In this document: positions 8,570 through 64,000 of the stretch, one piece after another
Layout: each line of letters starts with the position of its first letter
Position numbering within the stretch: the first letter of the stretch is position 1
Assembly: GCA_050008535.1 (NCBI GenBank)
Contig: JBEKML010000001.1
Location: forward strand, 327,050 to 391,049
Reading direction: 5' to 3'
DNA from: Minisyncoccia bacterium
GTDB taxonomy: Bacteria; Patescibacteriota; Minisyncoccia; UBA6257; 2-01-FULL-56-20
Length of the DNA: 64,000 nucleotides
Program-made: the position numbers and the translations under genes
Notes under the pieces: generated by a model
What the model was told of the DNA's origin: nothing
Database searches by the model: none
The model's input: only the letters and a program-made list of their open reading frames with translations

Positions 8570-8576
8570 GCGGTTC

Positions 8577-10274: not shown

Positions 10275-10396
10275 CTTCTCATCTTATCTCCGAAAGAAAC
10301 GATTAGGCAGGGATTGACGAAACGAAGACGGATATGGTATAGTATTCCTAGTCTCGGGGGCCCATGAGGCCGCCGAACAAACGGAGATCTTCTCAT

Positions 10397-10900: not shown

Positions 10901-10919
10901 GCCCCCGGTTTTCAAGCAG

Positions 10920-10962
10920 GACCGCTTCCCCCGCAAGGGAGAGAAGCGGTCTTTTCGTTTTA
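10920..10962. terminator. intrinsic terminator between convergent genes
   Basis: Hairpin GACCGCTTC ... GAAGCGGTC followed by TTTTCGTTTTA. Sits between the ends of the 10397..10900 (+) ORF and topA (-). Confidence 0.6.
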
Positions 10963-10966
10963 ATTC

Positions 10967-38655: not shown

Positions 38656-38724
38656 AAACCTGTCCGAGATTCGACATCGCCTAGATAGGCCAGCCGGATT
38701 TCATTAAAAAATTCTAAAATGTTT

Positions 38725-38752
38725 CTTGACGGTGACGGCCGATGCGCTATAA
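38725..38752 (+). promoter_or_regulatory. near-consensus sigma70-type promoter (TTGACG-16nt-TATAAT)
   Basis: -35 TTGACG at 38725-38730, 16-nt spacer, -10 TATAAT at 38747-38752. Lies about 300 nt upstream of ftsZ. Confidence 0.5.
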
Positions 38753-38806
38753 TACCCTTGAGATGGGATAGTCTGTAATAGACGACGGACTAGTTCTCAC
38801 TTTCCA

Positions 38807-38843
38807 TGAGAAACGGCCACTTCGGTGGCCGCTTCTCATTTTA
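38807..38843 (+). terminator. hairpin plus U-tract about 55 nt downstream of the promoter (terminator/attenuator of a short transcript)
   Basis: GAGAAACGGCCAC TTCG GTGGCCGCTTCTC followed by ATTTTAT. A second T-run GCGTTTTTTAAGC lies at 38849-38861. Confidence 0.45.
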
Positions 38844-39069
38844 TATCAAGCGTTTTTTAAGCTAATTTTAATCACCTTTTTGCTATGGTTCGTTCGCCGT
38901 GGATCATGGGGCCGTCGTCCATTACAGTTAGGATCTCATCTTTGGAAAGTGAGGAACCGGGTGCAAATCCCGGCGGCTCCACGGCACAGGAGGGCCTCTG
39001 CGAGGCCCTCCTGTTTTGGCCGTATCCACAGGTGGCACGCCAGCGGAAGATTTGTTATTATTGAATCAA

Positions 39070-49795: not shown

Positions 49796-50302
49796 CTATT
49801 TGCGCGAGAGCGCTTTATCCACGACGATCACGACGTCCGCATAGCTCACGCCGAATTTGAGCGCCGCGGCTTTCGTTGGCATCCATATGTCCACCACATC
49901 TTTCATGCGCCGGTTCATGCGGTCTTCCACGGTGAAAACCTTATTTCCAAAGAGCGACGGGATCTTTATTTTCGTTCCGAAGGGAAAAAAATTGCTCGCG
50001 ACGATCCCATCGCGGACGTGCATACCGTTCGCGGTGATGGAGGGAGTAGAGTCGGTTTCGTCGGGGGAGCTTGAATATGCCGTCACCCGCAGATAAAGCG
50101 AGAAGGCGGGCCCGGCCGCTTCGGCTAACGTTCCGGCCGTTACGCTGGCCACGCTAGCGCTAGCCTGGCTCGTGGCCCCGCCAACCTGCGGCGCAACATA
50201 ATCCGCCTTAATAATGGCGGGCACAAAGGTGGCCGCAAAGGTGGCTGCAATGGTCGCAAAAACACATACCCTTCTGATCAGTTTCTTCATGTTTCCTAAC
50301 AA
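49796..50302 (-). CDS. secreted 3D-domain protein (MltA-like cell-wall binding)
   Basis: Signal peptide and C-terminal 3D domain (VTAYSSSPDETDSTPSITANG...VEDRMN...VDIWM, with conserved Asp residues). Confidence 0.65.
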   Translation of the reverse strand: MLGNMKKLIRRVCVFATIAATFAATFVPAIIKADYVAPQVGGATSQASASVASVTAGTLAEAAGPAFSLYLRVTAYSSSPDETDSTPSITANGMHVRDGIVASNFFPFGTKIKIPSLFGNKVFTVEDRMNRRMKDVVDIWMPTKAAALKFGVSYADVVIVVDKALSRK

Positions 50303-50398
50303 AAACGCCCCTCTCGGGGCTTATCACGTCTCTATTTTTTCGACGGGGATAGTATAGCGCAGAATGCAAAAAAACGCAAGGGGCACCCCGGAGGCCCG

Positions 50399-50620
50399 CT
50401 AAAACAGCTTCGGGGTCGTAGGGAAGGCGCTTTCTTTGGGGATTTTGACTTTCCGGTCTATCATTTTTTGCAGGTCTGCTACGCGCACCTTCCAGTGCTT
50501 GCCGATCTTGAAGCCGGGGAGCTTGCCTCGTTTGCACCAGCCCCAGATCGTCTTTTTTGTCACGCCAAAGAATTTGGCGAGTTTCTCGGCGTTATAGATG
50601 GACTCCTCCTTCTTCCTCAC
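50399..50620 (-). CDS. small helix-turn-helix DNA-binding protein (excisionase/MerR-like family)
   Basis: LAKFFGVTKKTIWGWCKRGKLPGFKIGKHWKV is the excisionase-type HTH signature. Divergent from nifS. Confidence 0.6.
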   Translation of the reverse strand: MRKKEESIYNAEKLAKFFGVTKKTIWGWCKRGKLPGFKIGKHWKVRVADLQKMIDRKVKIPKESAFPTTPKLF

Positions 50621-50657
50621 ATAAAGATTATAGCACTTCCTGTGCTACTATATTTTC

Positions 50658-51953
50658 ATGGCTAAGGGCAGGTTCTATTTTGACCATGCCGCGACGACGC
50701 CGCTTGATCCCGCAGTGCTGCGCGCGATGAAACCGTATTTTACGGATGATTTTGGCAATCCTTCCAACCTGTATGGCTTCGGGCGCAAGGCGAAAGCGGC
50801 CATCGCCGCGGCGGCGAAGAAAATAAGCGCTGCGCTTGGATGCGCCCCATCGGAATTTATTTTTACGGGCTCCGCGACCGAATCGGATAATATGGCGATC
50901 GCGGGCGTCGCGCGGGCGAACCGACGGACTGGCGGAAACGGCGCGGCGGGCGGCGCGGGCAAGATCATCGTTTCAAACGTGGAACACAAAGGCATCCTTT
51001 CCGTCTGCGACGCGCTTCGCGAAGAAGGATTTGAAATTGAATATTTGAAGGTGGGCCGCGACGGATTGGTAAATCCGCGCGACCTCACAAAAATGCTGGG
51101 CGAAAAAACCATTTTGGTTTCCGTAACGTATGCCGACAGCGAGACCGGCACGATCCAACCGATCGCGGAACTTGCAAAGGTGATCAAGAAATTCCGCGCC
51201 AAAACAAAGAGCGCGCTGCCATATTTCCATACTGATGCGAGCCAGGCGGCGGCATATTTGGACATCAACGTTCAGAAATTGGGGGTTGATCTCCTCACGC
51301 TCTCGGCGCACAAGCTCTACGGGCCGAAGGGCGTGGGCGGGCTCTACGTGCGGCGCGGCGTAAGGATGGTGCCGATCATCTATGGGGGCGGCCAGCAGGA
51401 CCGGCTTCGCTCGGGCACGGAGAACGTCCCTGCGATCGTCGGTTTCGGCGAGGCGGTGGCGCTCGCAGCAAAACATCGCAAAACCGAGGCGGCGCGCGTG
51501 AAAAACCTGCGCGACGCGCTCCAAAAAGGCATTTCTAAAAAGATCCCGAAAGTGGTCCTGAACGGCCATCCAACGAAGCGCCTCCCGAACTTTTTGAACA
51601 TCTCCATTTTGGACATTGAGGGCGAGGCGCTGCTTTTGTATCTTGATGAGCTGGGGATCATGGTGAACACCGGCTCCGCCTGCAATTCGGAGAGTTTGGA
51701 GCCGTCGTACGTACTCATGGCGCTCGGCAACCCGTATGAATATGCGCATGGCAGCGCCCGCTTCACGCTTGGGAAGGGGACCACGCCCGCCGCCGTCAAT
51801 TATGTTCTAAAGCACCTGCCTGAAGTTGTGGTAAAATTGCGGAACATCTCGCCGCTCAATCTAAAACTCGGCGAGAAGAAGATAACGTCCCAGCCGAAGG
51901 CCTTTATCGGCGGCCAAACGCCGCACTTTTTGAGGAAAAAACAAAGGGGTTGA
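50658..51953 (+). CDS. cysteine desulfurase (NifS/IscS family)
   Basis: FYFDHAATTPLDPAV N-terminus, PLP-Lys region SAHKLYGPKGVG, catalytic Cys loop GSACNS. Confidence 0.85.
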   Translation: MAKGRFYFDHAATTPLDPAVLRAMKPYFTDDFGNPSNLYGFGRKAKAAIAAAAKKISAALGCAPSEFIFTGSATESDNMAIAGVARANRRTGGNGAAGGAGKIIVSNVEHKGILSVCDALREEGFEIEYLKVGRDGLVNPRDLTKMLGEKTILVSVTYADSETGTIQPIAELAKVIKKFRAKTKSALPYFHTDASQAAAYLDINVQKLGVDLLTLSAHKLYGPKGVGGLYVRRGVRMVPIIYGGGQQDRLRSGTENVPAIVGFGEAVALAAKHRKTEAARVKNLRDALQKGISKKIPKVVLNGHPTKRLPNFLNISILDIEGEALLLYLDELGIMVNTGSACNSESLEPSYVLMALGNPYEYAHGSARFTLGKGTTPAAVNYVLKHLPEVVVKLRNISPLNLKLGEKKITSQPKAFIGGQTPHFLRKKQRG

Positions 51954-51957
51954 AATT

Positions 51958-52530
51958 ATGAAATTTGACGAAGAAAGGTTAATACAAATTGCCAAGCCCT
52001 ATATTAAAAAAGGGCGGGCAGGCGATTGGGAGCATGCCCAGGCAGCGGTTGAATGGGTAAAGAAATTAGGGGCGGGGCGAGATGATTTGAATTTGCTTAT
52101 TTCTGCCGCCTACATACATGATATCGGTTGGTCGGGAATCGGCATGGGGAAAAAACTGGATTTAAACGGGGTACTTGAATTTGGTCCTCAAGCAAACAAA
52201 AATTCTCAAGCACTGGTTTCTAAAGTTCTATCTAGTTTGGATTTCAGTGGGTCAGAAATTGAAACGGCAAATCGCCTGGTCGCAGCGGCCGACAAGCATT
52301 ACGCCGAAAAGGAGGATGAAGCCATAATTGTGGACGCAGATAATTTAAGCAAGCTAACAATGGAACAACTCCGAGAGAAATATGAGCCAAAAGAATTTTT
52401 GAAGCTTATAGATCGCTGGGAGGCCGAGATGCCGAAAAGAATAAAAACCGAAATCGGGAAAAACACGTATCCCAAAGCCTTAAAGGATTTAAGGGAGCAA
52501 ATCAACAAAAATGCCAACGAAAAGATCTAA
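51958..52530 (+). CDS. HD-domain protein (putative phosphohydrolase)
   Basis: H...HD motif (AAYIHDIGW), with a preceding His in EHAQAA. Inserted inside the Fe-S cluster operon. Confidence 0.5.
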   Translation: MKFDEERLIQIAKPYIKKGRAGDWEHAQAAVEWVKKLGAGRDDLNLLISAAYIHDIGWSGIGMGKKLDLNGVLEFGPQANKNSQALVSKVLSSLDFSGSEIETANRLVAAADKHYAEKEDEAIIVDADNLSKLTMEQLREKYEPKEFLKLIDRWEAEMPKRIKTEIGKNTYPKALKDLREQINKNANEKI

Positions 52531-53194
52531 GCCGGATGTGGTGAACCGATTCACGGGCGGAAGCTGGGCGTATTCAAACATAGTAAAAAACCACTTCTTC
52601 AACCCGCGGAATTTGCTGTGGAAGATGCCGGATAAAAAAGAGAGCAAGAGATTTGACGCGGAGGGGATCGTGGGGAGCCCTGCCTGCGGCGACGTCATGC
52701 GCGTATGGCTCAAAATTGACCCGAAAACGGAGAGGATAAAGGAATTTAAATGGCGGACGTTCGGATGCGCGAGCGCGGTCGCCGCCACCTCCATGCTTTC
52801 CGTGATGGTGACGGAAAAAGGCGGGATGAAAATAGCGAAGGCGCTCGCGATTAGGCCGCAGGACATCATGAAGCGCCTGGGCGGATTGCCGGACCGGAAG
52901 GTGCATTGCTCGGTTCTGGGCGATAAAGCACTGCGCTCGGCGATCAACGATTGGTTCAAAAAACGCGGAAAATTTGATAGAATTCTTACGGAGGGCGCGC
53001 GCATCATTGATCCGAACACAAAAGTGACCGAAGCGGACATTGAGGAAGCGGTGGTTGAGGGCGCGATAACCCTGGACGCCGTCCAGAAACGGACAAAGGT
53101 CGGCGTGGGCTACAAAGAATGCCTTCCGCAGGTGGAGGAATTGATCCGGTTCTATCGCGAAAAATATTATGGCACGGACCGCCGTAGAAAATAA
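52511..53194 (+). CDS. Fe-S cluster scaffold protein (IscU/NifU N-terminal type) with C-terminal extension
   Basis: NHFFNPRN and three scaffold Cys (GSPACGD, FGCASA, HCSVL). Confidence 0.75.
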   Translation: MPTKRSKPDVVNRFTGGSWAYSNIVKNHFFNPRNLLWKMPDKKESKRFDAEGIVGSPACGDVMRVWLKIDPKTERIKEFKWRTFGCASAVAATSMLSVMVTEKGGMKIAKALAIRPQDIMKRLGGLPDRKVHCSVLGDKALRSAINDWFKKRGKFDRILTEGARIIDPNTKVTEADIEEAVVEGAITLDAVQKRTKVGVGYKECLPQVEELIRFYREKYYGTDRRRK

Positions 53195-53414
53195 AATAGG
53201 GGAAATTTTGGACAAGGTGCGGCCGTACATCCAGATGCACGGCGGCGACGTTCATTTGGCGGGCGTTGACTTGGGCGAAGGCGTGGTCCGGCTCATGGTG
53301 AGCGGCAAATGCGTGGACTGCCCGTGGGTCGAGCTCACGTACGAAAAAATGATCGGGGAGCTTTTGAAAAAAGAAATTTCGGAGGTAAAAGAAGTGGTGG
53401 TTGAACTATCGTAA
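53169..53414 (+). CDS. NifU C-terminal-domain (Nfu-type) Fe-S assembly protein
   Basis: VRPYIQMHGGDVHLAGVDLGEGVVRLMVSGKCVDCPW contains the conserved CxxC. Confidence 0.7.
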   Translation: MARTAVENKIGEILDKVRPYIQMHGGDVHLAGVDLGEGVVRLMVSGKCVDCPWVELTYEKMIGELLKKEISEVKEVVVELS

Positions 53415-53422
53415 AAAAATCT

Positions 53423-53692
53423 ATGGCAAATCAAGTGGAATATAAGCGGACAAAAGCGGGTTCAAAGATCGCGAAGATCGTAGTGGACAAGGACCTTTGC
53501 ATCGGCGCGGCATCATGCATCGCCGTTGCGGGAACGACCTTTGAACTTGGCGCGGACAATAAAGTGGTCGTCGTCGCCAGCGGCGGCGCGGATGCGGCCG
53601 ACGACGAGACGCTCATTCTTGCCGCGGAATCCTGCCCCACAAAGGCGATCCTGCTTTTTGACGCGGCGGGAAATCAGATATACCCGAAATAA
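53423..53692 (+). CDS. small ferredoxin-like protein
   Basis: CIGAASC ... CP Cys pattern (DKDLCIGAASCIAVA ... AESCPTKAI). Confidence 0.6.
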   Translation: MANQVEYKRTKAGSKIAKIVVDKDLCIGAASCIAVAGTTFELGADNKVVVVASGGADAADDETLILAAESCPTKAILLFDAAGNQIYPK

Positions 53693-53694
53693 CA

Positions 53695-54927
53695 GTGGAA
53701 ACGTTTAAATATTTGATCGTCGGCGGCGGCGTTGCGGGCGCGACGGCTGCGGAGACCATCCGCGAGCACGATCCGGCGGGTACGATCGGCCTCGTGAACG
53801 AGGAGCCGTACACTTTGTATTCGCGGGTGATGCTTTCCAAGCCGGGGTTTTTCCTTGAGAAAATTCCCTTTGACAGCATCTGGCTTAAAAACCAGGAATG
53901 GTATCAAAAAAACAACATCACGTTCCTCGGCGGGAAAAAAGCGGTCGGATTGGACACAAAGGAAAAAACGCTGACGTTTGAAGGCGGCGATAAGGTCGGC
54001 TACGGGAAGCTCCTCCTTGCCACGGGCGTCTGCGCGCGGACGTGGGAGGTGGAAGGCGCGGAAAAGCAGGGCGTCTATTACCTCCACGCGCTTGATGACG
54101 CAAAAAAGATCATCGCGGCGATCAAGACCGCAAAGAAAGCAATTACGATCGGAAGCGGCTTCATCAGCTTTGAAATGTCCGATCTTTTGCGCATGGCCGG
54201 CTTGGAAGTGACGGCGGTCTATTTGGAAGATTATTACTGGCAGCAGACATTGGACGAAGTTTCGGGGAAAATGGTGGAGGCGGCGCTTGAGCGGATGGGG
54301 GTGAAACTCATGAGAAAATCGGCGGTGGCGAAAGTGCTGGGGACCGGGAAGGTGGAGGGCGTCGTTTTGAAGAACGGCCTCTCGATCCCGTGCGACATGA
54401 TCGTCTGCGGCATTGGCGCCTACTGCGCGTTTGATTGGCTGAAGAACGCGGGCATTGCGGTGAACCGCGGCATTTTGGCAAACGAATATCTGGAAACGAA
54501 CGTGCCGGACGTCTGGGCCGCCGGCGATGCCGCAGAGTTCAAAGACATCATCGCGGAAGAAGTGGTGCAAGAAGGCAATTGGGTGAATGCGCACGAACAG
54601 GGGAGGATCGCGGCGCTCAACATGACAGGTACCAAAGAACCATTCAAATTCGTTTCATTTTATACCACGCAGGGTTCCGGCATCACGATCGCATTCGCGG
54701 GCGACGTCCGGCCCCTGCCTGACCGCACGATCATCCATCGCGGCTCGCCCCAGGCCAATTCCTACGTGCGGCTCCTTGTTGTGGGCTATGAACTCGTCGG
54801 CGCCACCCTGATCAACCGCACACAGGAACTCACGACCATCACAAATCTCATTAAGAATAACGTGGACGTGTCGGGGAAACTGGACAAGCTTGCGGATCCG
54901 AATTTTGATCTGAAGACGCTGTTATAG
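53695..54927 (+). CDS. FAD/NAD(P)-dependent pyridine nucleotide-disulfide family oxidoreductase (ferredoxin/rubredoxin reductase-like)
   Basis: FAD GxGxxG YLIVGGGVAGATAAE, a second NAD-binding Rossmann motif, and AAGDAAEF. Confidence 0.75.
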   Translation: METFKYLIVGGGVAGATAAETIREHDPAGTIGLVNEEPYTLYSRVMLSKPGFFLEKIPFDSIWLKNQEWYQKNNITFLGGKKAVGLDTKEKTLTFEGGDKVGYGKLLLATGVCARTWEVEGAEKQGVYYLHALDDAKKIIAAIKTAKKAITIGSGFISFEMSDLLRMAGLEVTAVYLEDYYWQQTLDEVSGKMVEAALERMGVKLMRKSAVAKVLGTGKVEGVVLKNGLSIPCDMIVCGIGAYCAFDWLKNAGIAVNRGILANEYLETNVPDVWAAGDAAEFKDIIAEEVVQEGNWVNAHEQGRIAALNMTGTKEPFKFVSFYTTQGSGITIAFAGDVRPLPDRTIIHRGSPQANSYVRLLVVGYELVGATLINRTQELTTITNLIKNNVDVSGKLDKLADPNFDLKTLL

Positions 54928-55125
54928 CGGCTCAACTATGAAAACGGAGAGCGGTTGACAAGAAAATCAAAAAATGTAAAGTGGGATTTTACATCAGTGC
55001 TGGACGTCTATCTGCGGACCTACGCCAAGTATCGGAAAAGTGACCACGGAAATACATTCCGCTATTAATTGGTGCCGCCGCGGGAAATCCTTCAGTGTAT
55101 TGATTCCTCCTCCTTTTTAAGGGTA

Positions 55126-55180
55126 TTGACTATTTTGTAAATATGCCCTATCCTTACAAATAGGTCGTGTTCTATATAAA
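55126..55180 (+). promoter_or_regulatory. putative promoter with overlapping palindromic operator upstream of the island cassette
   Basis: TTGACT at 55126-55131, then TATCCT / TATATAAA as candidate -10 elements. Palindrome TTGTAA-N13-TTACAA at 55135-55159. Confidence 0.3.
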
Positions 55181-55197
55181 TTATTAGCCCATTTAAT

Positions 55198-55410
55198 ATG
55201 GAAAATAAAAAGGATAGGTTTAAGCGTTTGGCTACTGCAAGAACCAATGGGGTTTTGAGGTCGCTTAAAGTGCTTGGCAATTGTGCCAACAGGAGTGCCT
55301 ATGATTACAGCGAAGAGGAAGTTAATAAGATTTTTTCGGAAATTGAACGTCGTGTCCGGGAGATAAAGGCGAAATTTCATTTCGGCAAAAATAAGGAATT
55401 TAAACTGTAA
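55198..55410 (+). CDS. hypothetical small basic protein (70 aa), first gene of the island cassette
   Basis: AT-rich ORF 14 nt upstream of the GHKL gene. No motif recognised; could be a regulator. Confidence 0.4.
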   Translation: MENKKDRFKRLATARTNGVLRSLKVLGNCANRSAYDYSEEEVNKIFSEIERRVREIKAKFHFGKNKEFKL

Positions 55411-55423
55411 ATCTACCGCATCA

Positions 55424-57421
55424 ATGAATCCAACTATTTATGCCGGTCGGCAGTTGCGAAATGACGAAAAGAACCTGAAGGCGATCGCCGATGGCTATGA
55501 GGTAAAACTTGGTCATAAATATTGGTTGGCGGAAGCGCTACAAAAAGATGCGATTCAAAATGGATGGGACGCTGGACATGGGAAGGAATGGAGTATGCGT
55601 TTTGAATTGAAAGGTGCCCAAGCTAGCTTTTTAATGATTCAAGATTCTTGTACTAGCGGGCTAAACGGAACTATATGGAAAGATCAGGAGGAATTGACAT
55701 CGATCTTGGAGAACGGAGATCGGACCGAAAACCTGGCGCATTTTTTGAGTTCCGATTTTAGCACAAAAACAGCGGAAAGCGGCGGAAAACGAGGAAGGGG
55801 TAAGTCCATATTCCTTTTTGCTTCGCAAAATTTGATATTTTATTTTGACTCACAGAGAGCGTCTTCTCGCGATTACGTCGCCGGAGCAATTTTCATAGAT
55901 TCTGACAAGGGAGCTAAGGTGGAAATGACAAGTGGCGATGCTGCTACGAAATACATGAAAGAGAAAACCGGAGAACACTATTCGCCCATTAAGACCAGCG
56001 GCACGCGTATTTTTATCAAGAACCCTCGGGAGGAGGTTGTCGTGGCGATCCGTGATGGCTCCATGATAAATTTCATCGAGAAAAACTGGTGGGAGATAAT
56101 AAAAAAATACGGCGCTCACATCACAGTATGCGATGGCACAGACACGAAGCAGGCGCAGGTCCCGATGTGGTATCGTGAAGACCTTTGTAAAGAAAAAGGG
56201 TTGGAACCGAAGGAATATCCGAACCTTAAGCTATCTTCCGGCGACAATAAATATCGGATTAAAAGAGTTTTTCTCATTTACAACCCAATGGGAGATACCC
56301 CGGAATCGCTCGTAGGCATCTCCATCCAACGAAAGGGGATGAGCATTGAGAGGAGGTCAACAGAAGCGCTGGTCAAGGAAGATGGCATGAGCAAGGTCTA
56401 TGGGTGGGTGGAGATGGAGCCGGAGTTGGAACATGCCATGTATGATCTCGAGGATGTTGAGCATCTTGGTTTTATTTGGACCAAAAAGCCAGCTAAAGAT
56501 TTGTTGGATTTGATAAAAATTCAGATACGAGATTTTGCGAAGGAAGTTAAATTGATCGAGAGCGAGCTGTCAAAGGAACATAAGGCCCATAAGCAAATCG
56601 AAGATGACATTGCAAAGAAGGTAAATAATTTTTTAAAAAACATCGGCTTCTCCGGGTTGGCTCTCACAAAGAGAAAAAGAACGGGAAAGAAAAGGATAGG
56701 AGAAATACCATTGAGGATATCGCTCGCAGATTTTAAATTGGCAGGAGGAAGCCGCCGCGTTAACTACGGAGAAACAATTAATGCGATTGCTGTAGTTGTA
56801 AATGAATTGGATATCTCCCTTCACGCCATCCATAGGACCTGGATTACGGATGAAGGAGGAAGAGTGGCAAAGATAAAAGAGGAGGAGATAGATTTGCATA
56901 AAGGTATTTCGCGGGCGCAGGGATGGGAACGAATGAAAGTTTCGAAGGAGGAGTTTCCTCCGGGTGATTACTCTTTCAAGTCAAAACTCACCCTCTTAGA
57001 AGATACCGACAAAGAACTACCTCGAATTGGAAGACTTGAGAAGGGAAAAGAAATTATTGTCTCAACTGCTTTTTCCGTAGAAAAAGATCCAAAAGCGCAA
57101 GGGTTTATTAAATTCGAACCGATCGTTGATAAGAACAAAGAGCGTTATATCACCACAAGACCGGAGGCCGGCGTTCTGGTCGTGGAATACAACACTCAGC
57201 ATCCGTATATCAGCAATCTTATGCCGACTGAACGCGCTGCTGATTTGGGAAGATTTCTTCTTGAGACAGGGATCATCATTGCGTTCAATGAAGTTATGGC
57301 GGAGGACATTTCTTCTGATAAGCCAAGGGTCTTTACGGACGTCAATGATGATTACGATATAACTAAGATTTTGCCCCGCGTCATGGAAGAGGTGAGTAAA
57401 TTTATGTGGCAATATCAATGA
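55424..57421 (+). CDS. GHKL/Bergerat-fold ATPase (MORC/MutL/Hsp90-like HATPase) with about 470-aa unknown C-terminal region
   Basis: All four Bergerat motifs in order: N-box DAIQNGWDAG (D42,N46,D49,A50), G1 IQDSCTSGLNG, G2 ESGGKRGRGKSIFLF (GxxGxGKS), motif IV SGTRIFI. No similarity to histidine-kinase dimerisation or MutL C-terminal domains was noticed. Confidence 0.6.
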   Translation: MNPTIYAGRQLRNDEKNLKAIADGYEVKLGHKYWLAEALQKDAIQNGWDAGHGKEWSMRFELKGAQASFLMIQDSCTSGLNGTIWKDQEELTSILENGDRTENLAHFLSSDFSTKTAESGGKRGRGKSIFLFASQNLIFYFDSQRASSRDYVAGAIFIDSDKGAKVEMTSGDAATKYMKEKTGEHYSPIKTSGTRIFIKNPREEVVVAIRDGSMINFIEKNWWEIIKKYGAHITVCDGTDTKQAQVPMWYREDLCKEKGLEPKEYPNLKLSSGDNKYRIKRVFLIYNPMGDTPESLVGISIQRKGMSIERRSTEALVKEDGMSKVYGWVEMEPELEHAMYDLEDVEHLGFIWTKKPAKDLLDLIKIQIRDFAKEVKLIESELSKEHKAHKQIEDDIAKKVNNFLKNIGFSGLALTKRKRTGKKRIGEIPLRISLADFKLAGGSRRVNYGETINAIAVVVNELDISLHAIHRTWITDEGGRVAKIKEEEIDLHKGISRAQGWERMKVSKEEFPPGDYSFKSKLTLLEDTDKELPRIGRLEKGKEIIVSTAFSVEKDPKAQGFIKFEPIVDKNKERYITTRPEAGVLVVEYNTQHPYISNLMPTERAADLGRFLLETGIIIAFNEVMAEDISSDKPRVFTDVNDDYDITKILPRVMEEVSKFMWQYQ

Positions 57422-58011
57422 ACATGGCTATCAAATTACGCAGAGGAGAAAATTTTTTCTATGCCCCGGTGACTGGTTTGCTTGATAAAAAAGAGCAGAA
57501 GCGCGCGGACGAAATATACACAAGCGCTAAGAATGCCGTAGAAAAATTAAACAAAACGAGGCGGAGCGGAACGATAGATATTCTTGCCGGGTGGCACCTG
57601 AGAGGTGTTTTAATAAATCAGATTATCCAAAAATTTGGGATAACCGAAACTGAAAAAAAGTATTTTTGGATGATGCTTTATGATGTCTCGGGAATGACGG
57701 TGCCGGACCATATTCGGAAAAACGATTTTCATGTGGCCAGCATTTTAGCAAACTATCCATTAAAGAGATTACAGGAAATCGGGGCTTGGAGTATGTGGCG
57801 AGAGATTATTGGGTCTACTAAGATTGGAAACGATGATAGGGTGGCGCGATGGGTGGTGGACTACATTGTCGAAAAAAAGATAAAAACCAGAGATCAGGCC
57901 AGGCCTTTATTGATGGCGGTTCGAAACAGGCTGAAGAGGATTGATGCTTCTATCTTAAGTAGCGGAGAATTAGCGAATAAATTGCAAGAGGTCGTAATAA
58001 AAAACAATTGA
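57418..58011 (+). CDS. hypothetical protein (197 aa), translationally coupled to the GHKL ATPase
   Basis: Its ATG at 57418 overlaps the GHKL stop (ATGA). Predicted mostly helical. No motif recognised. Confidence 0.5.
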   Translation: MNMAIKLRRGENFFYAPVTGLLDKKEQKRADEIYTSAKNAVEKLNKTRRSGTIDILAGWHLRGVLINQIIQKFGITETEKKYFWMMLYDVSGMTVPDHIRKNDFHVASILANYPLKRLQEIGAWSMWREIIGSTKIGNDDRVARWVVDYIVEKKIKTRDQARPLLMAVRNRLKRIDASILSSGELANKLQEVVIKNN

Positions 58012-58019
58012 AATTATCC

Positions 58020-59132
58020 ATGGAAAGTTCAGCTAAAGAATGTCCCGTCTGCGGCAAGCCGCTGACCCAGGAAGAGTACGACAAGGCTCTTGGTATCTGG
58101 AAGGCCAAGCACGAAGAAATAAAGCATTTGGAAAAGGAGAGGGCCGATCTCAAGCAGCAGGCTGCTTCGCTGAAAAAAGAAAAGGCTGAAGCGCGACGTG
58201 CGGCCAAGCTTCTTATAGCAGAGCAGAAACGGAAATCTGTCGCCGAGCTACGCCAATCACGACTTTTAATGAAAGAGGTATTTAAGAAGCAGCTAGAAAA
58301 CAAAGTCGGCAAAGCGGTTGCCAGCACCAAGAACAAGATGGGACAGCTGAATCGGAGTTGGAAAATCGCCCTGGAGAAAAACGAGAAGCTCCAGCAGGAA
58401 ATCAAACGGCTAAAAGAACAGCGCGAAAAAGGGATTACTCCGCAGATCGAGGGATTACTTGAAGAAGACAAGCTCTTGGCAAAACTGAAGGAATTATATT
58501 GTCCGCCTGATCAGTTTGAGCATCCAGGCAAAGGTGGCGATATTATCCAGACCGTTATGGAGCAAGGCAAACCCGTAGGGAAAATCGTTTATGAGTGTAA
58601 AAAAGTAAGATCATTTAGTCAAAGCCACGTGAAACAGGCATCCGATGCACGCGAATCAAGGAAAGCAGATTTTGCAGTGCTCGTGACCAATGCATTTCCC
58701 GCCAAGAGACAATCCTATTTTGTTTCCAATACGGTATATGTTATTAGTCCCGTAAGCGTTGAAGCCGTAACTTATACGCTACGCGAATTTCTTGTCAGAA
58801 TAGCCTTGCTCCGATTGTCGAATGCGGCAAAAGAGAAAGCCGTCAATGAGATTTACAAATACATGTCCGGAAACGAATATAGCGATAAGGTTAACGGAAT
58901 GGCGTCCCAGCTCTTAACGCTCAGGGGTGATTTGAAATCAGAAATTAACTCGCATTGGCAGATATGGAAAAAGCGCTACGCATCCTATCAAACTCTCTTT
59001 GTGGATCTTGGCACTATAGATTCCCGGCTGAAGAGTTTGCTGGCGCTTGGAGACGGTGACCGAGAAACGCCGAAGCTAGCCGCAGGACAACAAAAAACTT
59101 ATCCTCCACTTGAGGAACTCGAAAGGAAATAA
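58020..59132 (+). CDS. Zn-ribbon / coiled-coil / PD-(D/E)xK nuclease-fold protein
   Basis: N-terminal CPVCGKP. About 130 aa of Lys/Glu-rich heptad-like coiled coil. C-terminal restriction-endonuclease-like core FEHPGKGGDIIQTV...GKIVYECKKV (E, D, ExK motifs). Starts 8 nt after the upstream stop (alternative TTG at 58008 would overlap the stop). Confidence 0.55.
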   Translation: MESSAKECPVCGKPLTQEEYDKALGIWKAKHEEIKHLEKERADLKQQAASLKKEKAEARRAAKLLIAEQKRKSVAELRQSRLLMKEVFKKQLENKVGKAVASTKNKMGQLNRSWKIALEKNEKLQQEIKRLKEQREKGITPQIEGLLEEDKLLAKLKELYCPPDQFEHPGKGGDIIQTVMEQGKPVGKIVYECKKVRSFSQSHVKQASDARESRKADFAVLVTNAFPAKRQSYFVSNTVYVISPVSVEAVTYTLREFLVRIALLRLSNAAKEKAVNEIYKYMSGNEYSDKVNGMASQLLTLRGDLKSEINSHWQIWKKRYASYQTLFVDLGTIDSRLKSLLALGDGDRETPKLAAGQQKTYPPLEELERK

Positions 59133-59189
59133 CTTCCTTCGGTCCACATAAAACAACCTATCCCGACTGTTTTTACCAGACATCCATTC

Positions 59190-60806
59190 ATGAGAATAAC
59201 GGAATTCAAAATTAAGAATTTTAAATGTATTGGCCCTGAACCAATCACTCTAGACTTCACGGAAGATATTCTTGTTCTTATTGGGCAAAATAATGTTGGA
59301 AAGTCATCAGTGCTAAGGGCCCTTGATTTCTACTTTTCAGGGACTAAGACATTGCCAGAAAAATACTTTTATAACCACCAGCATGACCAAGATCATGCCG
59401 TAGTCATTGAACTAAAATTTAGCGACCTTTCTAGTCAGGATAGGGTTCACCAAGCCGTATCGCCGTATATCTCTACCGATAATTCTTGGATTCTCAGAAA
59501 ATCTTACTATTACGATAGCGATGGTGGAGGTAAATGTGATTACGCCGCTATTGTTGATGGCGCAGAGAAGAAAAATCCAGCGGGCCTGACACAAAACTGC
59601 GACAATCTCTTTGTCGGCGACAAAATGCAAAAGATCTTTGTAGAGGCGGTAAAAGATGTGTCTGATGTGGTGGAGGGGAAAAGCAAATCAACATTTGGAC
59701 AGATATTTAGCATAATCCTTAAGAATGCAGTAGAGGCAACAAGTGAATATACATCACTACTTGATGCGCTCCGCGCATATCAAAATCTTTTCCGGGGCGC
59801 AGGCCAATTATCGCAGATTACGCAAGTGGAAAATACCATCAACGAAAGACTGGCAAGAATAATTAGCGCAAGCAGCAAAATAGATACGGAATCGCCGCAA
59901 GTAGAGAAATTTATGCCAGCACCAAAACTCCTAACAGACGACGGGAGAGGAATCGACATTGATCCTACCGAACAAGGCCATGGCTTACAGCGAGCTTTAA
60001 TATTTGTTTTATTAGAATTACTAGCGGAGACAACTAGTCCCATGACTAAAGAAGTAGGCCCTAGAAACTTATTAATGATTGAAGAACCTGAAATTTATAT
60101 GCATCCGCAAATGCTAAGGAAGATAGCTGATACTCTCTATGAAATTGCTTCACAAGGTAAGGCACAAGTGATCTGCACTACACACTCACCCATTTTCATC
60201 AGAATCGCAGAAAAACAGAAGGCGTTAGCCCGCTTTGTCAGAAAAGAAGATAATTCGCTTACCGTTTTTCAGCAAAAGACGGATATTTTCTCTGGAGCCG
60301 GAGCAACAGAATTAAAGAAACAACTACAAATGATTACCAACTTTGATCCCGCAGTGAACGAGTTATTCTTTGCGAGAAGGGTGGTGCTTTTAGAAGGAGA
60401 TACTGAACTTGCCGTATTTCGTGAGGCTCCAAACTTATTGTTCGCGGGGAACAAAAATAACCTCCGTGATTGTCGGGATACCACTGTTATCAACTGTAGG
60501 GGCAGAAACACCATCCCATTGTTTCAAGAGATTCTAAACCACTTTCAAATTCCTTACGTTGTCATTCACGATACCGAAGGAGAAGATAAGACCAGCGGTA
60601 TAAACGGTAAAATTCTTGGATTACTTGGCGGTGATGAATCAAAACGTAAAATGTTCAGTCCTAATATAGAAGATGGTTTAGGTATTACGGACAGAGGAGG
60701 CAATAAGTCAATCAAAGCCCTGGATCGTATCCAAGAATTGAATGGCCTCGGTCAATTAGAGGGGAAAATAGGAAGTTACATAAGATTCGCTTACAACATT
60801 CCATAG
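59190..60806 (+). CDS. OLD-family nuclease (N-terminal ABC-type ATPase + C-terminal Toprim), class-1-like standalone architecture
   Basis: Walker A GQNNVGKSS, Walker B/D-loop LLMIEEPEIYMHPQ, H-loop VICTTHSP. Toprim Glu VVLLEGDTELAVF and acidic cluster VVIHDTEGED. No adjacent UvrD-like helicase. Confidence 0.75.
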   Translation: MRITEFKIKNFKCIGPEPITLDFTEDILVLIGQNNVGKSSVLRALDFYFSGTKTLPEKYFYNHQHDQDHAVVIELKFSDLSSQDRVHQAVSPYISTDNSWILRKSYYYDSDGGGKCDYAAIVDGAEKKNPAGLTQNCDNLFVGDKMQKIFVEAVKDVSDVVEGKSKSTFGQIFSIILKNAVEATSEYTSLLDALRAYQNLFRGAGQLSQITQVENTINERLARIISASSKIDTESPQVEKFMPAPKLLTDDGRGIDIDPTEQGHGLQRALIFVLLELLAETTSPMTKEVGPRNLLMIEEPEIYMHPQMLRKIADTLYEIASQGKAQVICTTHSPIFIRIAEKQKALARFVRKEDNSLTVFQQKTDIFSGAGATELKKQLQMITNFDPAVNELFFARRVVLLEGDTELAVFREAPNLLFAGNKNNLRDCRDTTVINCRGRNTIPLFQEILNHFQIPYVVIHDTEGEDKTSGINGKILGLLGGDESKRKMFSPNIEDGLGITDRGGNKSIKALDRIQELNGLGQLEGKIGSYIRFAYNIP

Positions 60807-60826
60807 AATTTATCCTGGGCGCTGGA

Positions 60827-62917
60827 TTACCCGACCACCACCCGTGCATCCACGACCACCGCGCCGCGGTCGGTCGCCATCGCGGGGTTTAGGTCAATCG
60901 CTTGTATTTCGGGGTTCAGAAGCGCGAGGTGCGAGAGGGCGACGATGAGCTTTGTGAGTGCCCGCGCGTCAACGGGTTTTTCGCCGCGTGCGCCGCGGAG
61001 GAGCGATGCGCCTTTTATTTCGTCCATCATTTTGCGGGCATCGGCGTCGGCGACGGGCGCCACACGGAGCGCCACGTCGTGCATGGCTTCTACGAAGATG
61101 CCGCCGAAACCGAAGCTTATGACCGGTCCGAAGACGGGGTCGCGCTTCATGCCGATGATGATCTCTTTGCCTTTTGCCATGGGCTGCACGAGCATTCCTT
61201 GTATCACGGCGCGGGGCGCCTTGCGGCGGACGGCCTTCGCGATCTCGTCCCATGCGTCGCGCGCCGCCTTAGCGTCCGCGAGGTTCAATCGTACGCCGCC
61301 CACGTCCGTCTTGTGGCTTATTTCCCGCGAGATGACCTTCATTGCGAAGGGACCGGCGCCGAGTTCTTCCAAGATCGCATCAAGATCAATTTTTGCGCGC
61401 ACGAATTCGCCGCTTATTTCAATGCCGTATTTTTCGAGGAGTATGCGGGCGGCGGCGAAGTCCATGAGCGTTGCGGCGGACTTCAAAGCGGAGAGTTTTG
61501 GGGCGGCAGAGGGGGCGGCGGCCGGTTTCGCTTCCGCCTTTTTCCCGAACACCGCGAACGCGAGCGCGTCCAGCGCTCCGATCGCGTCATCCGGAAAATC
61601 AAAATTGACGAGATTGGCCTCGCGGAGCGCCCGCACGCCGTCCGCAACGGCTTCGCGGCCCATAAAGACCGGTATGACAAGCTTCTTTTTCCCGTAGGCC
61701 GCGAGGAGCCGCGCCGTGCCTGCGGCATCCGTCATCATCTGCGGCGTGAGGATAACAATAATTCCCTGGGCGGCTTTTTCCGCGCATAAAACTTTGAGCG
61801 CGCTTTCGTAGCGCGGGGGCAAGGCGTCGCCCAAAATGTCCACGGGGTTTCCGAGGGCCGCTATCGGCGGGAGCGCCTTTGCGAGTGCGCGCGTTGCGGC
61901 TTCGCTCAATTTTGCAAGCGAGAGCGACGAGGACAATTCCACGAGGTCCGCTGCGACGACCGACGGCCCGCCGCCGTTCGTGAGGATCGCGATCTCGCGC
62001 GGAGGTTTTTGGGTGTCCAGGGCGCCCGATGTGAGGCCAAGCTGGAGAAGCTTCGCCGTGTTATAAAATTCGCGGAGGGAGCCCACGGTCACGACGCCGC
62101 ATTCGCGGCAGGCTGCTTCAAAGACCGCGCTTTCCGGCGCGAGCGAGCCCGTGTGCGAAAGTGCCGCCGCGCTCCCGCGCGCGCTCCGGCCGGCCTTCAA
62201 AACAACAACGGGTTTTTTCTGCGTGATTTTCTTCGCGAGCGCCATGAATTTTTTCCCGTCGCTTACTTTTTCCAGATATAGCATGATCGCTTCCGTTTCT
62301 TTGTCTTTTGCGAGATATTCCAGAAATTCAATTTCCGTGAGCACGGCTTCGTTGCCCAAACTGATGAACTTTGAAAACCTCACGCCTTCCTTGTGCGCCC
62401 AGTCAAGCATCGCGGCGCCCAGGGCGCCCGATTGCGAAAGGAAAGCGATCGCGCCCGGCGCGGGCGTCTCCGCGGCCGCGAAAGAAGCGTTCAGCCCCGC
62501 GTGCGTGTCGATCGTGCCCAAGCAGTTCGGGCCGAGAAGCGCAACGTGGTAGCTCGCGGCCGTCATCCTGATCTTTTTCTCTAGTTCCTTGCCGGCGTCG
62601 CCCGCTTCCTTGAAGCCGGATGAGATGATGATGGCCGCGCCGACTTCTTTTTTGCCGCATTCCTCAAGCACCGCGGGCACGGCGAAAGCGGGGATGGCGA
62701 TCACGGCAAGGTCAACCTTGTCTTTTATTTCCGCTATTGACCTGTAGGCAGGCAGGCCGAGGATGACCCGCTCGGTGAGCGAAACGGGAAGTATTTTCCG
62801 CTTGTGCGCCCCGCCGTTTTTCAGATTGAAGACCAGCGAATAGCCGACTTTGTTTTTGTCGTTTGAGGCGCCGATGACCGCGACCGACTGCGGATCAAAG
62901 AATTTTTTGAGATCCAT
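60827..62917 (-). CDS. acetyl-CoA synthetase (ADP-forming), fused alpha/beta domains
   Basis: N-terminal CoA-binding Rossmann VAVIGASNDKNKVGY, succinyl-CoA-synthetase-like ligase domains, C-terminal ATP-grasp region. 696 aa. Confidence 0.75.
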   Translation of the reverse strand: MDLKKFFDPQSVAVIGASNDKNKVGYSLVFNLKNGGAHKRKILPVSLTERVILGLPAYRSIAEIKDKVDLAVIAIPAFAVPAVLEECGKKEVGAAIIISSGFKEAGDAGKELEKKIRMTAASYHVALLGPNCLGTIDTHAGLNASFAAAETPAPGAIAFLSQSGALGAAMLDWAHKEGVRFSKFISLGNEAVLTEIEFLEYLAKDKETEAIMLYLEKVSDGKKFMALAKKITQKKPVVVLKAGRSARGSAAALSHTGSLAPESAVFEAACRECGVVTVGSLREFYNTAKLLQLGLTSGALDTQKPPREIAILTNGGGPSVVAADLVELSSSLSLAKLSEAATRALAKALPPIAALGNPVDILGDALPPRYESALKVLCAEKAAQGIIVILTPQMMTDAAGTARLLAAYGKKKLVIPVFMGREAVADGVRALREANLVNFDFPDDAIGALDALAFAVFGKKAEAKPAAAPSAAPKLSALKSAATLMDFAAARILLEKYGIEISGEFVRAKIDLDAILEELGAGPFAMKVISREISHKTDVGGVRLNLADAKAARDAWDEIAKAVRRKAPRAVIQGMLVQPMAKGKEIIIGMKRDPVFGPVISFGFGGIFVEAMHDVALRVAPVADADARKMMDEIKGASLLRGARGEKPVDARALTKLIVALSHLALLNPEIQAIDLNPAMATDRGAVVVDARVVVG

Positions 62918-63711
62918 TATTTATAGAGCTGTTCTTCAAACGACGGCTGTTCCACGCGGTAAAAAATGCCGAGCGGCACTTTTGCGTCCGCGCCGCCGGG
63001 CGCGCCGCTTGCGCGCACCGCCTCCATTGCGTGCGCGAGGTCGTTTTTCGGTTCGTTTTCGTCTATCCAATACACGCGGTCTTTGAAATATTCGCGCGTG
63101 TCGTAGAACGTGATGCACGGCTGGATGATGTCCACGAAGGAAAATCCTTTGTGCGCGATCGCGGCTTTCATGATGTCTTTTGTTTTCGCGATGTCCAGGG
63201 CGTATGTGCGCGCGACGAACGTGGCGCCGGACGAAAGCATGAAGAGCAGGGGATTGAACGGCGATTCAATGCTGCCGTAGGGCGTTGATTTCCCTTTGAA
63301 GCCCACGGGCGTCGTGGGCGTCGCCTGGCCGGTCGTGAGCGCAAAGACCTGGTTGTCGTGGACGAAAAGATTGATGTCCGAGTTCCTGCGTGCCGCGTGC
63401 ACCAGGTGACCTACGCCTTCCGAGTATGAATCACCGTCGCCGCTGAACCCCACGACCATGAGCAAAGGGTTCGCCATTTTTATGCCCTCCATGTTTGCGA
63501 TCACGCGGCCATGAAGCGAGGTGAACGTGTTCGTGTTCAGGTAATCGGTGATCTTGCCGTGGCAGCCGATCCCCGCTGCCGCGACCAGATTTTCCGGTTT
63601 CAATTTGCCGTCATTTACAAGATCGGTTACTGCTTCGCGGAATGCCACAAGGATCCCTCCGTTCGGGCATCCCGGGCACCACGTGATCTTTGCTTTGGTT
63701 GCGAGGTCCAT
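62917..63711 (-). CDS. 2-oxoacid:ferredoxin oxidoreductase beta subunit (TPP-binding)
   Basis: WCPGCPNGG N-terminal motif and TPP-binding GDGDSYSEG...N motif. Confidence 0.8.
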   Translation of the reverse strand: MDLATKAKITWCPGCPNGGILVAFREAVTDLVNDGKLKPENLVAAAGIGCHGKITDYLNTNTFTSLHGRVIANMEGIKMANPLLMVVGFSGDGDSYSEGVGHLVHAARRNSDINLFVHDNQVFALTTGQATPTTPVGFKGKSTPYGSIESPFNPLLFMLSSGATFVARTYALDIAKTKDIMKAAIAHKGFSFVDIIQPCITFYDTREYFKDRVYWIDENEPKNDLAHAMEAVRASGAPGGADAKVPLGIFYRVEQPSFEEQLYK

Positions 63712-63713
63712 GG

Positions 63714-64000
63714 TTATTTCAAATAATTGTTTATTTTTTCCGCCAGCTCGAGCGGGTCGAATGGCCGCGCGTTGTACTGGAGAATCTTTTTGTCTATCCG
63801 CACCCCCGTCTTTTCGCGGATGAGCGCGGCGAGCTGCGCCGTGCGGTTCGTTTCCACGTCAATGATCGTTTTCGCGCCGCCCAATTCCGCCGCAACCCTT
63901 TCAGCGTCAAAGGGTTCCATCCAGACGATCTGCAAAAGTTTTACGGGTTTTGCGAGGTACTTCGCCGCCTCAAGCACGGCGCCCTTCGTGGATCCCCAGA
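63714..64000 (-). CDS. 2-oxoacid:ferredoxin oxidoreductase alpha subunit, C-terminal part only (gene continues beyond window end)
   Basis: The ORF is open to the window edge, immediately upstream of and co-oriented with the beta subunit. Partial only. Confidence 0.55.
   Translation of the reverse strand, partial: WGSTKGAVLEAAKYLAKPVKLLQIVWMEPFDAERVAAELGGAKTIIDVETNRTAQLAALIREKTGVRIDKKILQYNARPFDPLELAEKINNYLK

Follow-up and report, generated by a model that had tools for sequence, protein, structure and literature searches.

Class 1 is, to our knowledge, the least understood class of OLD nucleases, and we know of anti-phage activity or other phenotypes reported for only a few of its members, namely P2 Old, Vibrio cholerae OLD (Vc OLD), and E. 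coli YbjD. P2 Old and Vc OLD, two Class 1 proteins with shown anti-phage activity, are single polypeptides that join an ATPase to a Toprim domain and have no dedicated partner. Prophage-borne P2 Old hydrolyses ATP and then cleaves tRNA at anticodon stems (PMC12445682); Vc OLD nicks DNA (PMC12392090). Thermus scotoductus OLD (Ts OLD; 6P74), which has no known phage phenotype, is a 528-aa protein in which an ABC ATPase with a helical insert is followed by a Toprim domain ending in short helices; we take the roles of its residues in the ATPase and in binding metals A and B from PMC7049728. Class 1 proteins are ~500-600 aa long (PMC12392090 and PMC10568477), and Class 2 proteins are ~50 aa longer, with a helical insert (PMC10568477). 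In PARIS (Class 4), ATPase and Toprim are split between AriA and AriB.

We analyzed an OLD gene in a 64,000-nucleotide stretch of DNA (the window) from a Minisyncoccia bacterium. Its product shares the single-polypeptide organization and, apparently, the lack of a dedicated partner with P2 Old and Vc OLD, the order of domains with Ts OLD, and a homologous ATPase-Toprim fold with Gabija GajA (Class 2). As in PARIS and PrrC-type nucleases, members of its subfamily place an ABC-ATPase-controlled nuclease beside restriction systems. While P2 Old is carried by a prophage, the subfamily is chromosomal in CPR bacteria. Most probably (about 0.78), the window OLD is a single-gene Class 1 nuclease with an intact catalytic apparatus, and it belongs to a ~540-aa subfamily, found mainly in CPR/Patescibacteria, whose members travel singly among defence islands and mobile elements; here, the gene lies beside two independent modules.

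Architecture and class of the OLD protein

The gene is a single unbroken ORF with an ATG start (Table 1), and the database record identical to its 538-aa product is described as 'AAA family ATPase [Minisyncoccia bacterium]' and 'predicted ATP-dependent endonuclease of OLD family'. Pfam models AAA_15 (4e-41), AAA_21 (3e-23), and OLD-like_TOPRIM (PF20469; 3e-14, residues 393-461) matched the protein, with further matches to SMC_N and AAA_23 in the ATPase region. Thus, the fusion of an ABC ATPase to a Toprim core that the original prediction had read from the letters was borne out, with every motif quoted there in place. Both hallmarks of the family, an ABC ATPase with Walker A, Walker B, and H-loop and a Toprim domain with acidic ligands for metals A and B, were found. 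In the AF2 model (pLDDT 87.5, pTM 0.82), the ATPase insert folds into three helices (residues 168-182, 185-199, and 208-224), which are predicted to form a dimerization domain.

Table 1. Positions of the OLD gene, its motifs, and its upstream neighbours in the window
Feature	Position	Strand	Basis
p70, triad member	55198-55410	+	neighbour
GHKL ATPase p665, 665 aa	55424-57421	+	neighbour; GHKL fold by AF2 and Foldseek
p201, triad member	57406-58011	+	neighbour
p70-GHKL-p201 triad, full span	55198..58011	+	
DUF2130 protein, 374 aa; N-terminal CxxC and coiled coil, PD-(D/E)xK-type C-terminus	58008..59132	+	PF09903, 3e-22
OLD-family nuclease gene, Class-1-like	59190..60806	+	ORF, Pfam, PADLOC, PDB, and fold matches
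N-terminal ABC (Rad50/SMC/RecF-like) ATPase region, ~residues 1-370, boundary approximate	59190..60299	+	SMC_N/AAA_23/AAA_15; alignment to Ts OLD and GajA
Walker A/P-loop GQNNVGKS, residues 32-39; K38 = Ts OLD K34	59283..59306	+	motif and alignment
Three-helix ATPase insert, residues 168-224; predicted dimerization domain	59691..59861	+	AF2 model; full-length fold match to 6P74
Walker B LLMIEEPE (294-301) and D-loop histidine, residues 294-305; E298/E299 = Ts E276, H305 = Ts H283	60069..60104	+	invariant in 25/25 sequences
H-loop TTHSP, residues 330-334; H332 = Ts H310	60177..60191	+	alignment and motif
C-terminal Toprim nuclease domain and two terminal helices, residues 393-538	60366..60803	+	PF20469, secondary structure, fold match
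Toprim EGDTE (in LLEGDTE, 400-406); E402 = metal A, Ts E377; E406 = metal B, Ts D381	60393..60407	+	alignment, motif
Toprim HDTE (in HDTEGED, 460-466), DxD motif; D461 = Ts D431, E463 = Ts D433	60567..60578	+	alignment, motif
E494 (metal B, = Ts E480) through invariant K506	60669..60707	+	alignment, motif

Ts OLD was the best match by both profile and fold, although identity is only ~20%. Each catalytic residue of the window OLD corresponds to one that has been mutated in Ts OLD: the ATPase residues K34, E276, H283, and H310 and the nuclease residues E377, D381, D431, D433, and E480 all have counterparts. Across 25 subfamily members, K38, E298/E299, H305, H332, E402, E406, D461, E494, and K506 are invariant, while position 463 is D or E, the second DxD residue of the window OLD being Glu (E463). 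The position of Ts S478 is Asn or Lys, and the basic residue matching Ts R487 is uncertain. An HMM alignment placed K506 opposite Ts K492, not R487, and K506 is a candidate for the transition-state Lys/Arg. Judged by alignment, every catalytic residue of OLD nucleases is present.

To place the protein among OLD classes, we compared sequence and structure matches. The best PADLOC model was 'Old' (1.2e-77, 260 bits). GajA models reached 1.6e-32 at best (<=111 bits), at least 150 bits below 'Old', the retron ATPase-Toprim model gave 1e-25, and AriA (3e-44) covered only the ATPase part (residues 1-337). A PDB profile search ranked 6P74 at the top (4e-38, 135 bits), followed by GajA (6.5e-11, 45 bits) and Eco8 OLD (4e-9), and Foldseek with the AF2 model returned the same order, 6P74 first (1e-26, TM 0.64/0.67), then GajA, then Eco8. 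By tblastn, the protein matched phage P2 old directly (23% identity over 86%, 4e-21). Since the best matches were PADLOC 'Old', 6P74, and P2 Old, with Gabija, retron, and PARIS relatives far lower, the window OLD appears Class-1-like, a placement based on scores from HMM, PDB, and fold searches.

The partners that define the other classes were absent. No GajB/UvrD-like helicase lies beside the gene, which is followed by a convergent gene for ADP-forming acetyl-CoA synthetase; there is no reverse transcriptase (RT) ORF at 50-64 kb of the window, and Rfam gave no family match in 50000-64000 at E <= 0.1. ATPase and Toprim share one ORF, unlike the split proteins of Class 4. This survey of flanking ORFs and the Rfam scan agreed with the earlier statement that neither a helicase nor a reverse transcriptase is nearby and, with the matches above, upheld the description of the protein as class-1-like. 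That it derives instead from a Gabija (Class 2) or a retron (Class 3) OLD that decayed and lost its partner is highly improbable. GajA and Eco8 OLD are detectable as homologues, but Class 1 references score far better, and the NCBIfam model of the retron Eco8 effector reached 73.7 bits against a cut-off of 250. The length of 538 aa fits Class 1, and the AF2 model has only two helices after the last Toprim strand, with no large C-terminal helical domain of the Class 2 type. Consistent proximity of homologs to a UvrD-like gene, which had been named as the sign of a decayed Gabija, was not seen, as UvrD made up 1 of 98 neighbours of the relatives.

The low-GC island and its GHKL cassette

The window OLD forms the right edge of a ~5.7 kb low-GC island (GC 0.42-0.45 vs ~0.55) that ends within ~20 bp of the OLD stop codon. 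The flanks are housekeeping genes: NifS-like, NifU-like, and Pyr_redox_2 genes upstream, and the ADP-forming acetyl-CoA synthetase and 2-oxoacid:ferredoxin oxidoreductase beta downstream. Co-transcription of the five island genes, and hence some functional coupling, is conceivable, because the genes lie on one strand, overlap or are separated by short gaps (57 bp before OLD), and have no predicted + strand terminator between them, in a scan that did no better than on shuffled sequence. One promoter-like site was found upstream of p70 (55126-55154), again in a scan no better than shuffled sequence.

The first three genes form a triad for whose products searches of PADLOC, NCBIfam, Pfam, and PHROGs produced no usable match, and no Pfam model matched p665. 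The AF2 model of p665 (pLDDT 85), whose top Foldseek matches in the PDB were Hsp90, Topo VI-B, and Topo II ATPase, confirmed the earlier assignment of this upstream protein as a GHKL ATPase. Its Bergerat boxes are invariant: N46 (N box), D74/G76/G79 (G1, DxGxxG), and G121/G124/G126 (G2, GxxGxG).

The original prediction offered two further roles for the OLD gene, as a companion travelling with the GHKL genes or as the effector of a new multi-gene combination. A five-gene p70-GHKL-p201-DUF2130-OLD system with OLD as effector would fit the shared strand, the tight spacing, the single low-GC island, and the promoter-like site, but comparative context largely refutes it, and we regard it as very improbable. 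The triad is conserved in ~80 metagenome loci, and an OLD HMM search of 80 triad-bearing loci found no OLD. Conversely, p70, p665, and p201 were absent throughout when the four upstream island proteins were compared by tblastn with 84 OLD-seeded loci; the triad occurs in none of the 11 other subfamily OLD loci, nor in the 70-odd loci of more distant OLD relatives. The check proposed earlier, whether homologs elsewhere always adjoin the triad, came out negative. In the closest relative of the triad (79% identical), both DUF2130 and OLD are missing and unrelated small genes follow, and the gene after p201 varies, being a C5 methylase in 17/40 cases and elsewhere SduA, PDDEXK_1, NYN, trypsin-like, or host genes. 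In addition, each of the three modules has its nearest relative on a different contig and at a different distance (OLD 61%, GHKL 79%, and DUF2130 85% identical).

Because no OLD is found in triad loci, no triad in OLD loci, and the nearest relatives are separate, the OLD gene is unrelated to the upstream triad, an outcome that the original prediction had listed as telling against its reading; as far as the triad is concerned, that outcome is what we found. Thus, the triad is a self-contained cassette beside which OLD lies by local accident of the defence island. OLD should not be counted within this cassette, and the triad, the more original object of the two, is better studied alone.

DUF2130 and other PD-(D/E)xK neighbours

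The gene between the triad and OLD encodes a DUF2130 protein. As DUF2130 is listed as a PD-(D/E)xK family (PMC3424549), the earlier mention of an upstream PD-(D/E)xK gene holds. Whether this protein is a partner of the window OLD is a different matter, and such a partnership is possible but unproven. Comparison with tblastn detected DUF2130 in two of the 84 OLD-seeded loci, and more were recovered only with a dedicated HMM. DUF2130 then proved to adjoin OLD in 4/12 subfamily loci (the window, L004-L006, L012, and L179) and in three more distant ones (L025, L033, and L074), without a fixed gene order. In L004-L006, the DUF2130 and OLD genes overlap by 4 bp inside an hsdM...hsdS operon.

In one reading, OLD and an adjacent DUF2130 protein, or an exchangeable PD-(D/E)xK nuclease, would form a two-gene module and a further genetic context ('class') for OLD, with the partner supplying a second nuclease or a coiled-coil/Zn-hook scaffold. 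Besides this adjacency, the reading draws on DUF2130 being the commonest single family among the 98 OLD neighbours (5), on its presence, with the window left out, in 3/11 subfamily OLD loci vs 1/59 triad loci (Fisher p = 0.011), on weak matches of the DUF2130 N-terminus to the Rad50 zinc hook, SbcC, and LmuB, and on loci L003 and L013, which share a PDDEXK_1 gene directly downstream whose products are 76% identical despite OLDs at 56%. We nevertheless consider it doubtful. The window DUF2130 belongs to a clade of 71-85% identical proteins whose five other contexts lack OLD, while OLD-associated DUF2130s fall in other, deep clades, and even their relatives are found singly or next to other ATPases in plasmids. 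Eight of the 12 subfamily OLDs lack DUF2130, one of them being a lone gene on a mobile element. Some PD-(D/E)xK-type gene is adjacent in 7/12 subfamily loci, but since, in a control set, 5/40 genes lying downstream of the GHKL triad are also of this type (5/23 in its closer branch), the excess per neighbour slot over the defence-island background is weak and not convincing.

Two expectations were examined and rejected: the window DUF2130 does not group with the OLD-associated DUF2130s, and partner type, which would indicate co-inheritance if it followed the OLD tree, does not follow it. It is only a tentative thought, and an unlikely one, that the ~540-aa CPR-centred subfamily works with an exchangeable PD-(D/E)xK nuclease (DUF2130 in the window, L004, L012, and L179; PDDEXK_1 in L003 and L013), and perhaps also acts as a second line behind neighbouring restriction-modification (R-M) systems, as in the hsdM-DUF2130-OLD-hsdS arrangement of L004. 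If true, this arrangement would give OLD nucleases a fifth genetic context, with a logic like that of PrrC or PARIS.

Contexts of the subfamily and a proposed mode of action

Close relatives of the window OLD are ~540 aa long, come mostly from CPR bacteria, and lie in ever-changing contexts, usually beside R-M genes. The 12 subfamily loci include an SLFN helicase, type ISP, type IIG, and type I R-M systems, GmrSD, a conjugative element, and AlwI, NgoPII, and EcoRI-methylase type II systems. Apart from DUF2130, which recurs as described, no conserved partner emerged across these 12 and ~65 more distant loci, and these changing contexts, together with the ~80 triad cassettes without OLD, also speak against OLD as the effector of a new combination. 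Subfamily OLDs are nearly always inside defence islands, although a review describes Class 1 genes as lying away from other defence genes. Genes of this class can thus regularly reside in defence islands, typically by R-M systems, which contradicts the published generalisation. A scan of viral contigs with the OLD alignment returned distant relatives only (best 30% identity), and so gave no evidence that the subfamily is phage-borne.

A class of OLD proteins that does not act in defence exists (PMC12796447), and the window OLD could in principle be a housekeeping ATPase, as reported for archaeal Cran1; the subfamily has no known phenotype. The patchy distribution of the gene, its atypical GC, and the R-M, Abi, and other defence genes and recombinases that constantly accompany it argue against such a role, to which we give almost no credence.

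The preferred reading, a lone Class 1 nuclease moving between defence islands, accommodates a mechanism in which dimerization, trigger, substrate, and defence phenotype are likely ones, modelled on characterised relatives. The gene would have landed at the edge of the 5.7-kb island beside the p70-GHKL-p201 cassette and the DUF2130 nuclease. Its product would dimerize via the helical insert of the ABC ATPase, and a phage-derived cue would bring about ATP-dependent engagement of the ATPase heads. Engagement would then license cleavage of nucleic acid at the Toprim site, where two metals would be bound (E402/D461/E463 and E406/E494, with K506). The target would most likely be DNA, nicked or degraded as by Ts OLD and Vc OLD; alternatively, it could be tRNA anticodon stems, as for P2 Old. 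In either case, phage replication would be halted or the infected cell sacrificed.

The window OLD adds to Class 1 a well-defined subfamily, catalytically intact by sequence, from CPR/Patescibacteria, a group in which defence systems have received little study. Its host lineage is uncultivated. One relative, the L004 OLD between hsdM and hsdS, recalls PrrC, which is reportedly a latent anticodon nuclease inside a type I R-M locus.

The OLD protein and its class

The 538-aa OLD protein is identical to one already recorded from a Minisyncoccia (CPR/Patescibacteria) MAG, which one source labels a predicted ATP-dependent endonuclease of the OLD family. The original prediction of an ABC-type ATPase fused to a Toprim core was confirmed by the single ORF, by Pfam matches to AAA_15 (4e-41), AAA_21 (3e-23), and OLD-like_TOPRIM (3e-14, residues 393-461), and by the five motifs it quoted, which we located at residues 32-39, 294-301, 330-334, 400-406, and 460-466.

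The protein had also been called Class-1-like, and comparisons of sequence and fold bore this out. The PADLOC model Old was by far the top defense-system match (1.2e-77, residues 1-462); AriA of PARIS matched the ATPase part only (3e-44), and Gabija GajA (1.6e-32 or weaker) and retron ATPase-Toprim (1e-25) models were weaker still. Comparison of a profile built from 25 subfamily members with the PDB returned 6P74, a Class 1 OLD from Thermus scotoductus (Ts OLD), at 4e-38, GajA at 6.5e-11, and Eco8 OLD at 4e-9. A fold search with an AlphaFold2 model (pLDDT 87.5, pTM 0.82) ranked 6P74 first (E 1e-26, TM 0.64/0.67), GajA second, and Eco8 OLD third. A direct match to phage P2 old covered 86% of the protein at 23% identity (4e-21). 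The partners that define other classes were absent: ATPase and Toprim are fused in one protein, and, as noted earlier for helicase and reverse transcriptase, 50-64 kb of the window contained neither a UvrD-like helicase nor a reverse transcriptase, nor any known structured RNA. Nor is a UvrD-like gene a consistent neighbor elsewhere, as a UvrD domain occurred in 1 of 98 immediate neighbors of OLD relatives (70-odd genomes).

We read residue equivalences from a HMMER alignment to Ts OLD, the subject of a mutational study (Schiltz et al., 2020; PMC7049728). In the ATPase, K38, E298/299, H305, and H332 correspond to Ts OLD K34, E276, H283, and H310; in the Toprim domain, E402, E406, D461, E463, and E494 correspond to E377, D381, D431, D433, and E480. 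All are invariant across the subfamily, except position 463 (D or E). In the AlphaFold2 model, a three-helix insert in the ATPase (residues 168-224) is placed where Ts OLD carries its dimerization domain. Past the last Toprim strand the model has just two helices and hence no Class-2-type helical domain. With its catalytic residues matched and this architecture, the protein looks fully active and built like a Class 1 OLD; on its sequence and fold scores, we take it to be a real OLD nuclease of Class 1 that is intact.

By analogy with characterized relatives, the protein would dimerize via its helical insert, a phage cue would favor ATP-dependent engagement of the ATPase heads, and engagement would switch on the Toprim site for two-metal cleavage. 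[quoted passage not shown] Among relatives with solved structures, Ts OLD is the closest, so DNA would be the more likely substrate, with tRNA a serious alternative.

The island and the p70-GHKL-p201 cassette

The OLD gene is the last gene of a low-GC island of ~5.7 kb (GC 0.42-0.45 versus ~0.55 around it), bounded by a Pyr_redox_2 oxidoreductase gene on one side and, on the other, by a convergent gene for ADP-forming acetyl-CoA synthetase. Other low-GC 1-kb bins in the window (0.43-0.47 versus ~0.55), one adjoining a tRNA-Pro gene, may be further small inserts.

Features of the window and of other loci
Locus	Feature	Coordinates	Strand	Remarks
Window	OLD gene	59190-60806	+	single ORF, 538 codons
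Window	low-GC bins	2001-3000, 25001-26000, 38001-39000, 42001-43000
Window	tRNA-Pro	38908-38982
L001	SLFN-like helicase + OLD + PDDEXK_3			AbiEii and RadC alongside
L003	type ISP R-M + KTSC + OLD + PDDEXK_1	KTSC 9790-9999; PDDEXK_1 11628-12386
L004	hsdM-DUF2130-OLD-hsdS	7012-12812		4-bp overlaps
L008	PLD-helicase + type IIG R-M + Abi_C + OLD + SNase
L010	AlwI R-M + OLD
L011	NgoPII R-M + OLD
L012	disrupted OLD + DUF2130
L013	OLD + PDDEXK_1	PDDEXK_1 11641-12396
L031	EcoRI methylase + GmrSD-HNH + OLD + KTSC	KTSC 11620-11832
L165	p70 copy	2263-2481
L178	lone OLD			TraG-like/relaxase genes one side, serine recombinase other side
L179	OLD + DUF2130			serine recombinase alongside

The p70-GHKL-p201 genes span 55198-58011 (+), with p70 at 55198-55410. 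The 665-aa protein encoded between p70 and p201 is, as predicted, a GHKL ATPase: it has the invariant N box and the G1 and G2 boxes, and the best PDB folds for its AlphaFold2 model (pLDDT 85) are the Hsp90, Topo VI-B, and Topo II ATPase regions. The original prediction had OLD either travelling with these genes or acting as effector of a new multi-gene combination. In a metagenome scan, relatives of the 665-aa protein occurred in 80 loci, with p70 and p201 homologues on either side in essentially all that were sufficiently long. OLD (OLD HMM, E <= 1e-10) was absent from all 80, and the triad was absent from all OLD-seeded loci. The nearest relatives also differ per module, each on other contigs (OLD 61%, GHKL 79%, DUF2130 85%). 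Thus, the island is a mosaic of separate modules. OLD does not travel with the GHKL genes and is not their effector; the locus comparisons and unlike nearest relatives do not support the multi-gene combination.

The gene 3′ of p201 differs between loci. In a distant branch (~28% identity) a C5 DNA methylase occupies this position, and in L138, the sole locus in which the next gene was scanned, an HhH-GPD glycosylase comes after it. Others are Shedu SduA, PDDEXK_1, NYN, trypsin-like, DnaA_C-HTH, and plain host genes; DUF2130 takes this place in one locus besides the window, and unrelated small genes come next in the closest triad relative (79% identity). Pfam, PADLOC, NCBIfam, and PHROG gave no above-threshold match for p70, the GHKL ATPase, or p201, which together look like an undescribed MORC/GHKL-type restriction-like or defense cassette.

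Conservation is much stronger for p70 than for the GHKL protein beside it (82% versus 40% in L093). In L165, a 67%-identical p70 copy heads a different cassette, comprising p72, 623-aa GHKL-like protein (motifs ETLQNAVDA and GGSFGIGKG), 282-aa protein, DUF6339, DUF2130, and adjoining a serine recombinase, C5 methylase, and Vsr.

The OLD subfamily and DUF2130

Full-length subfamily members are 534-557 aa, 41-61% identical, and mostly from CPR, while OLDs outside it are 600-650 aa and 25-40% identical. Since contexts differ among the 12 distinct readable loci (window included), we conclude that the OLD gene travels alone and lands in defense islands, most often by R-M systems. With contexts this varied and the triad absent, the gene is unrelated to the GHKL genes upstream, an outcome that the original prediction had named as evidence against itself. 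These settings run counter to the published generalization that Class 1 OLD genes lie away from other defense genes (PMC10568477).

A published listing places DUF2130 among PD-(D/E)xK families of unknown function (PMC3424549). The window protein, encoded at 58008-59132 (+), has an N-terminal CxxC, a coiled coil of ~130 residues, and a PD-(D/E)xK-type C-terminal domain; its N-terminal part weakly matches Rad50 zinc hook, SbcC, and Lamassu LmuB. It is 374 aa from the TTG start used here and 370 aa from the NCBI start four codons downstream. DUF2130 genes are promiscuous residents of defense islands, and their neighbors include OLD, GHKL cassettes, R-M systems (type ISP, BsoBI, and type I), a NERD-UvrD helicase, and a TrlF-like ATPase.

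That OLD and DUF2130, or another PD-(D/E)xK gene, form a module is unlikely, even though DUF2130 directly adjoins OLD in 4/12 subfamily loci and three distant ones (L025, L033, and L074), in either order. With the window excluded, it occurs in 3/11 subfamily loci versus 1/59 triad loci (Fisher p = 0.011). However, other members of the window DUF2130 clade (71-85% identity) occur without OLD, ending the p72-headed cassette with the 623-aa GHKL-like protein or lying by type ISP R-M with PycTM. OLD-associated DUF2130s fall in other, deep clades, and their plasmid relatives are alone or by a NERD-UvrD helicase or TrlF-like ATPase. The OLD tree and partner type also disagree. A general PD-(D/E)xK excess beside OLD is weak because 5/40 genes 3′ of the triad are of this type as well. 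Both this loose association and the p70-GHKL-p201 cassette are worth following.

In L003 and L013, the PDDEXK_1 gene (Cas4/RecB-like, 251-252 aa) lies 4-18 bp 3′ of OLD; these partners share 76% identity, whereas identity between the two OLDs is just 56% and the subfamily tree places them on separate branches. A type I R-M operon in L004 (also L006) carries DUF2130 and OLD between its hsdM and hsdS genes; hsdM overlaps DUF2130, and DUF2130 overlaps OLD, by 4 bp each. This order is reminiscent of the anticodon nuclease PrrC, whose gene is likewise housed in a type I R-M locus. L003 and L031 each have a short gene for a KTSC-domain protein (69-70 aa) right next to OLD, on its upstream side in one locus and on its downstream side in the other.
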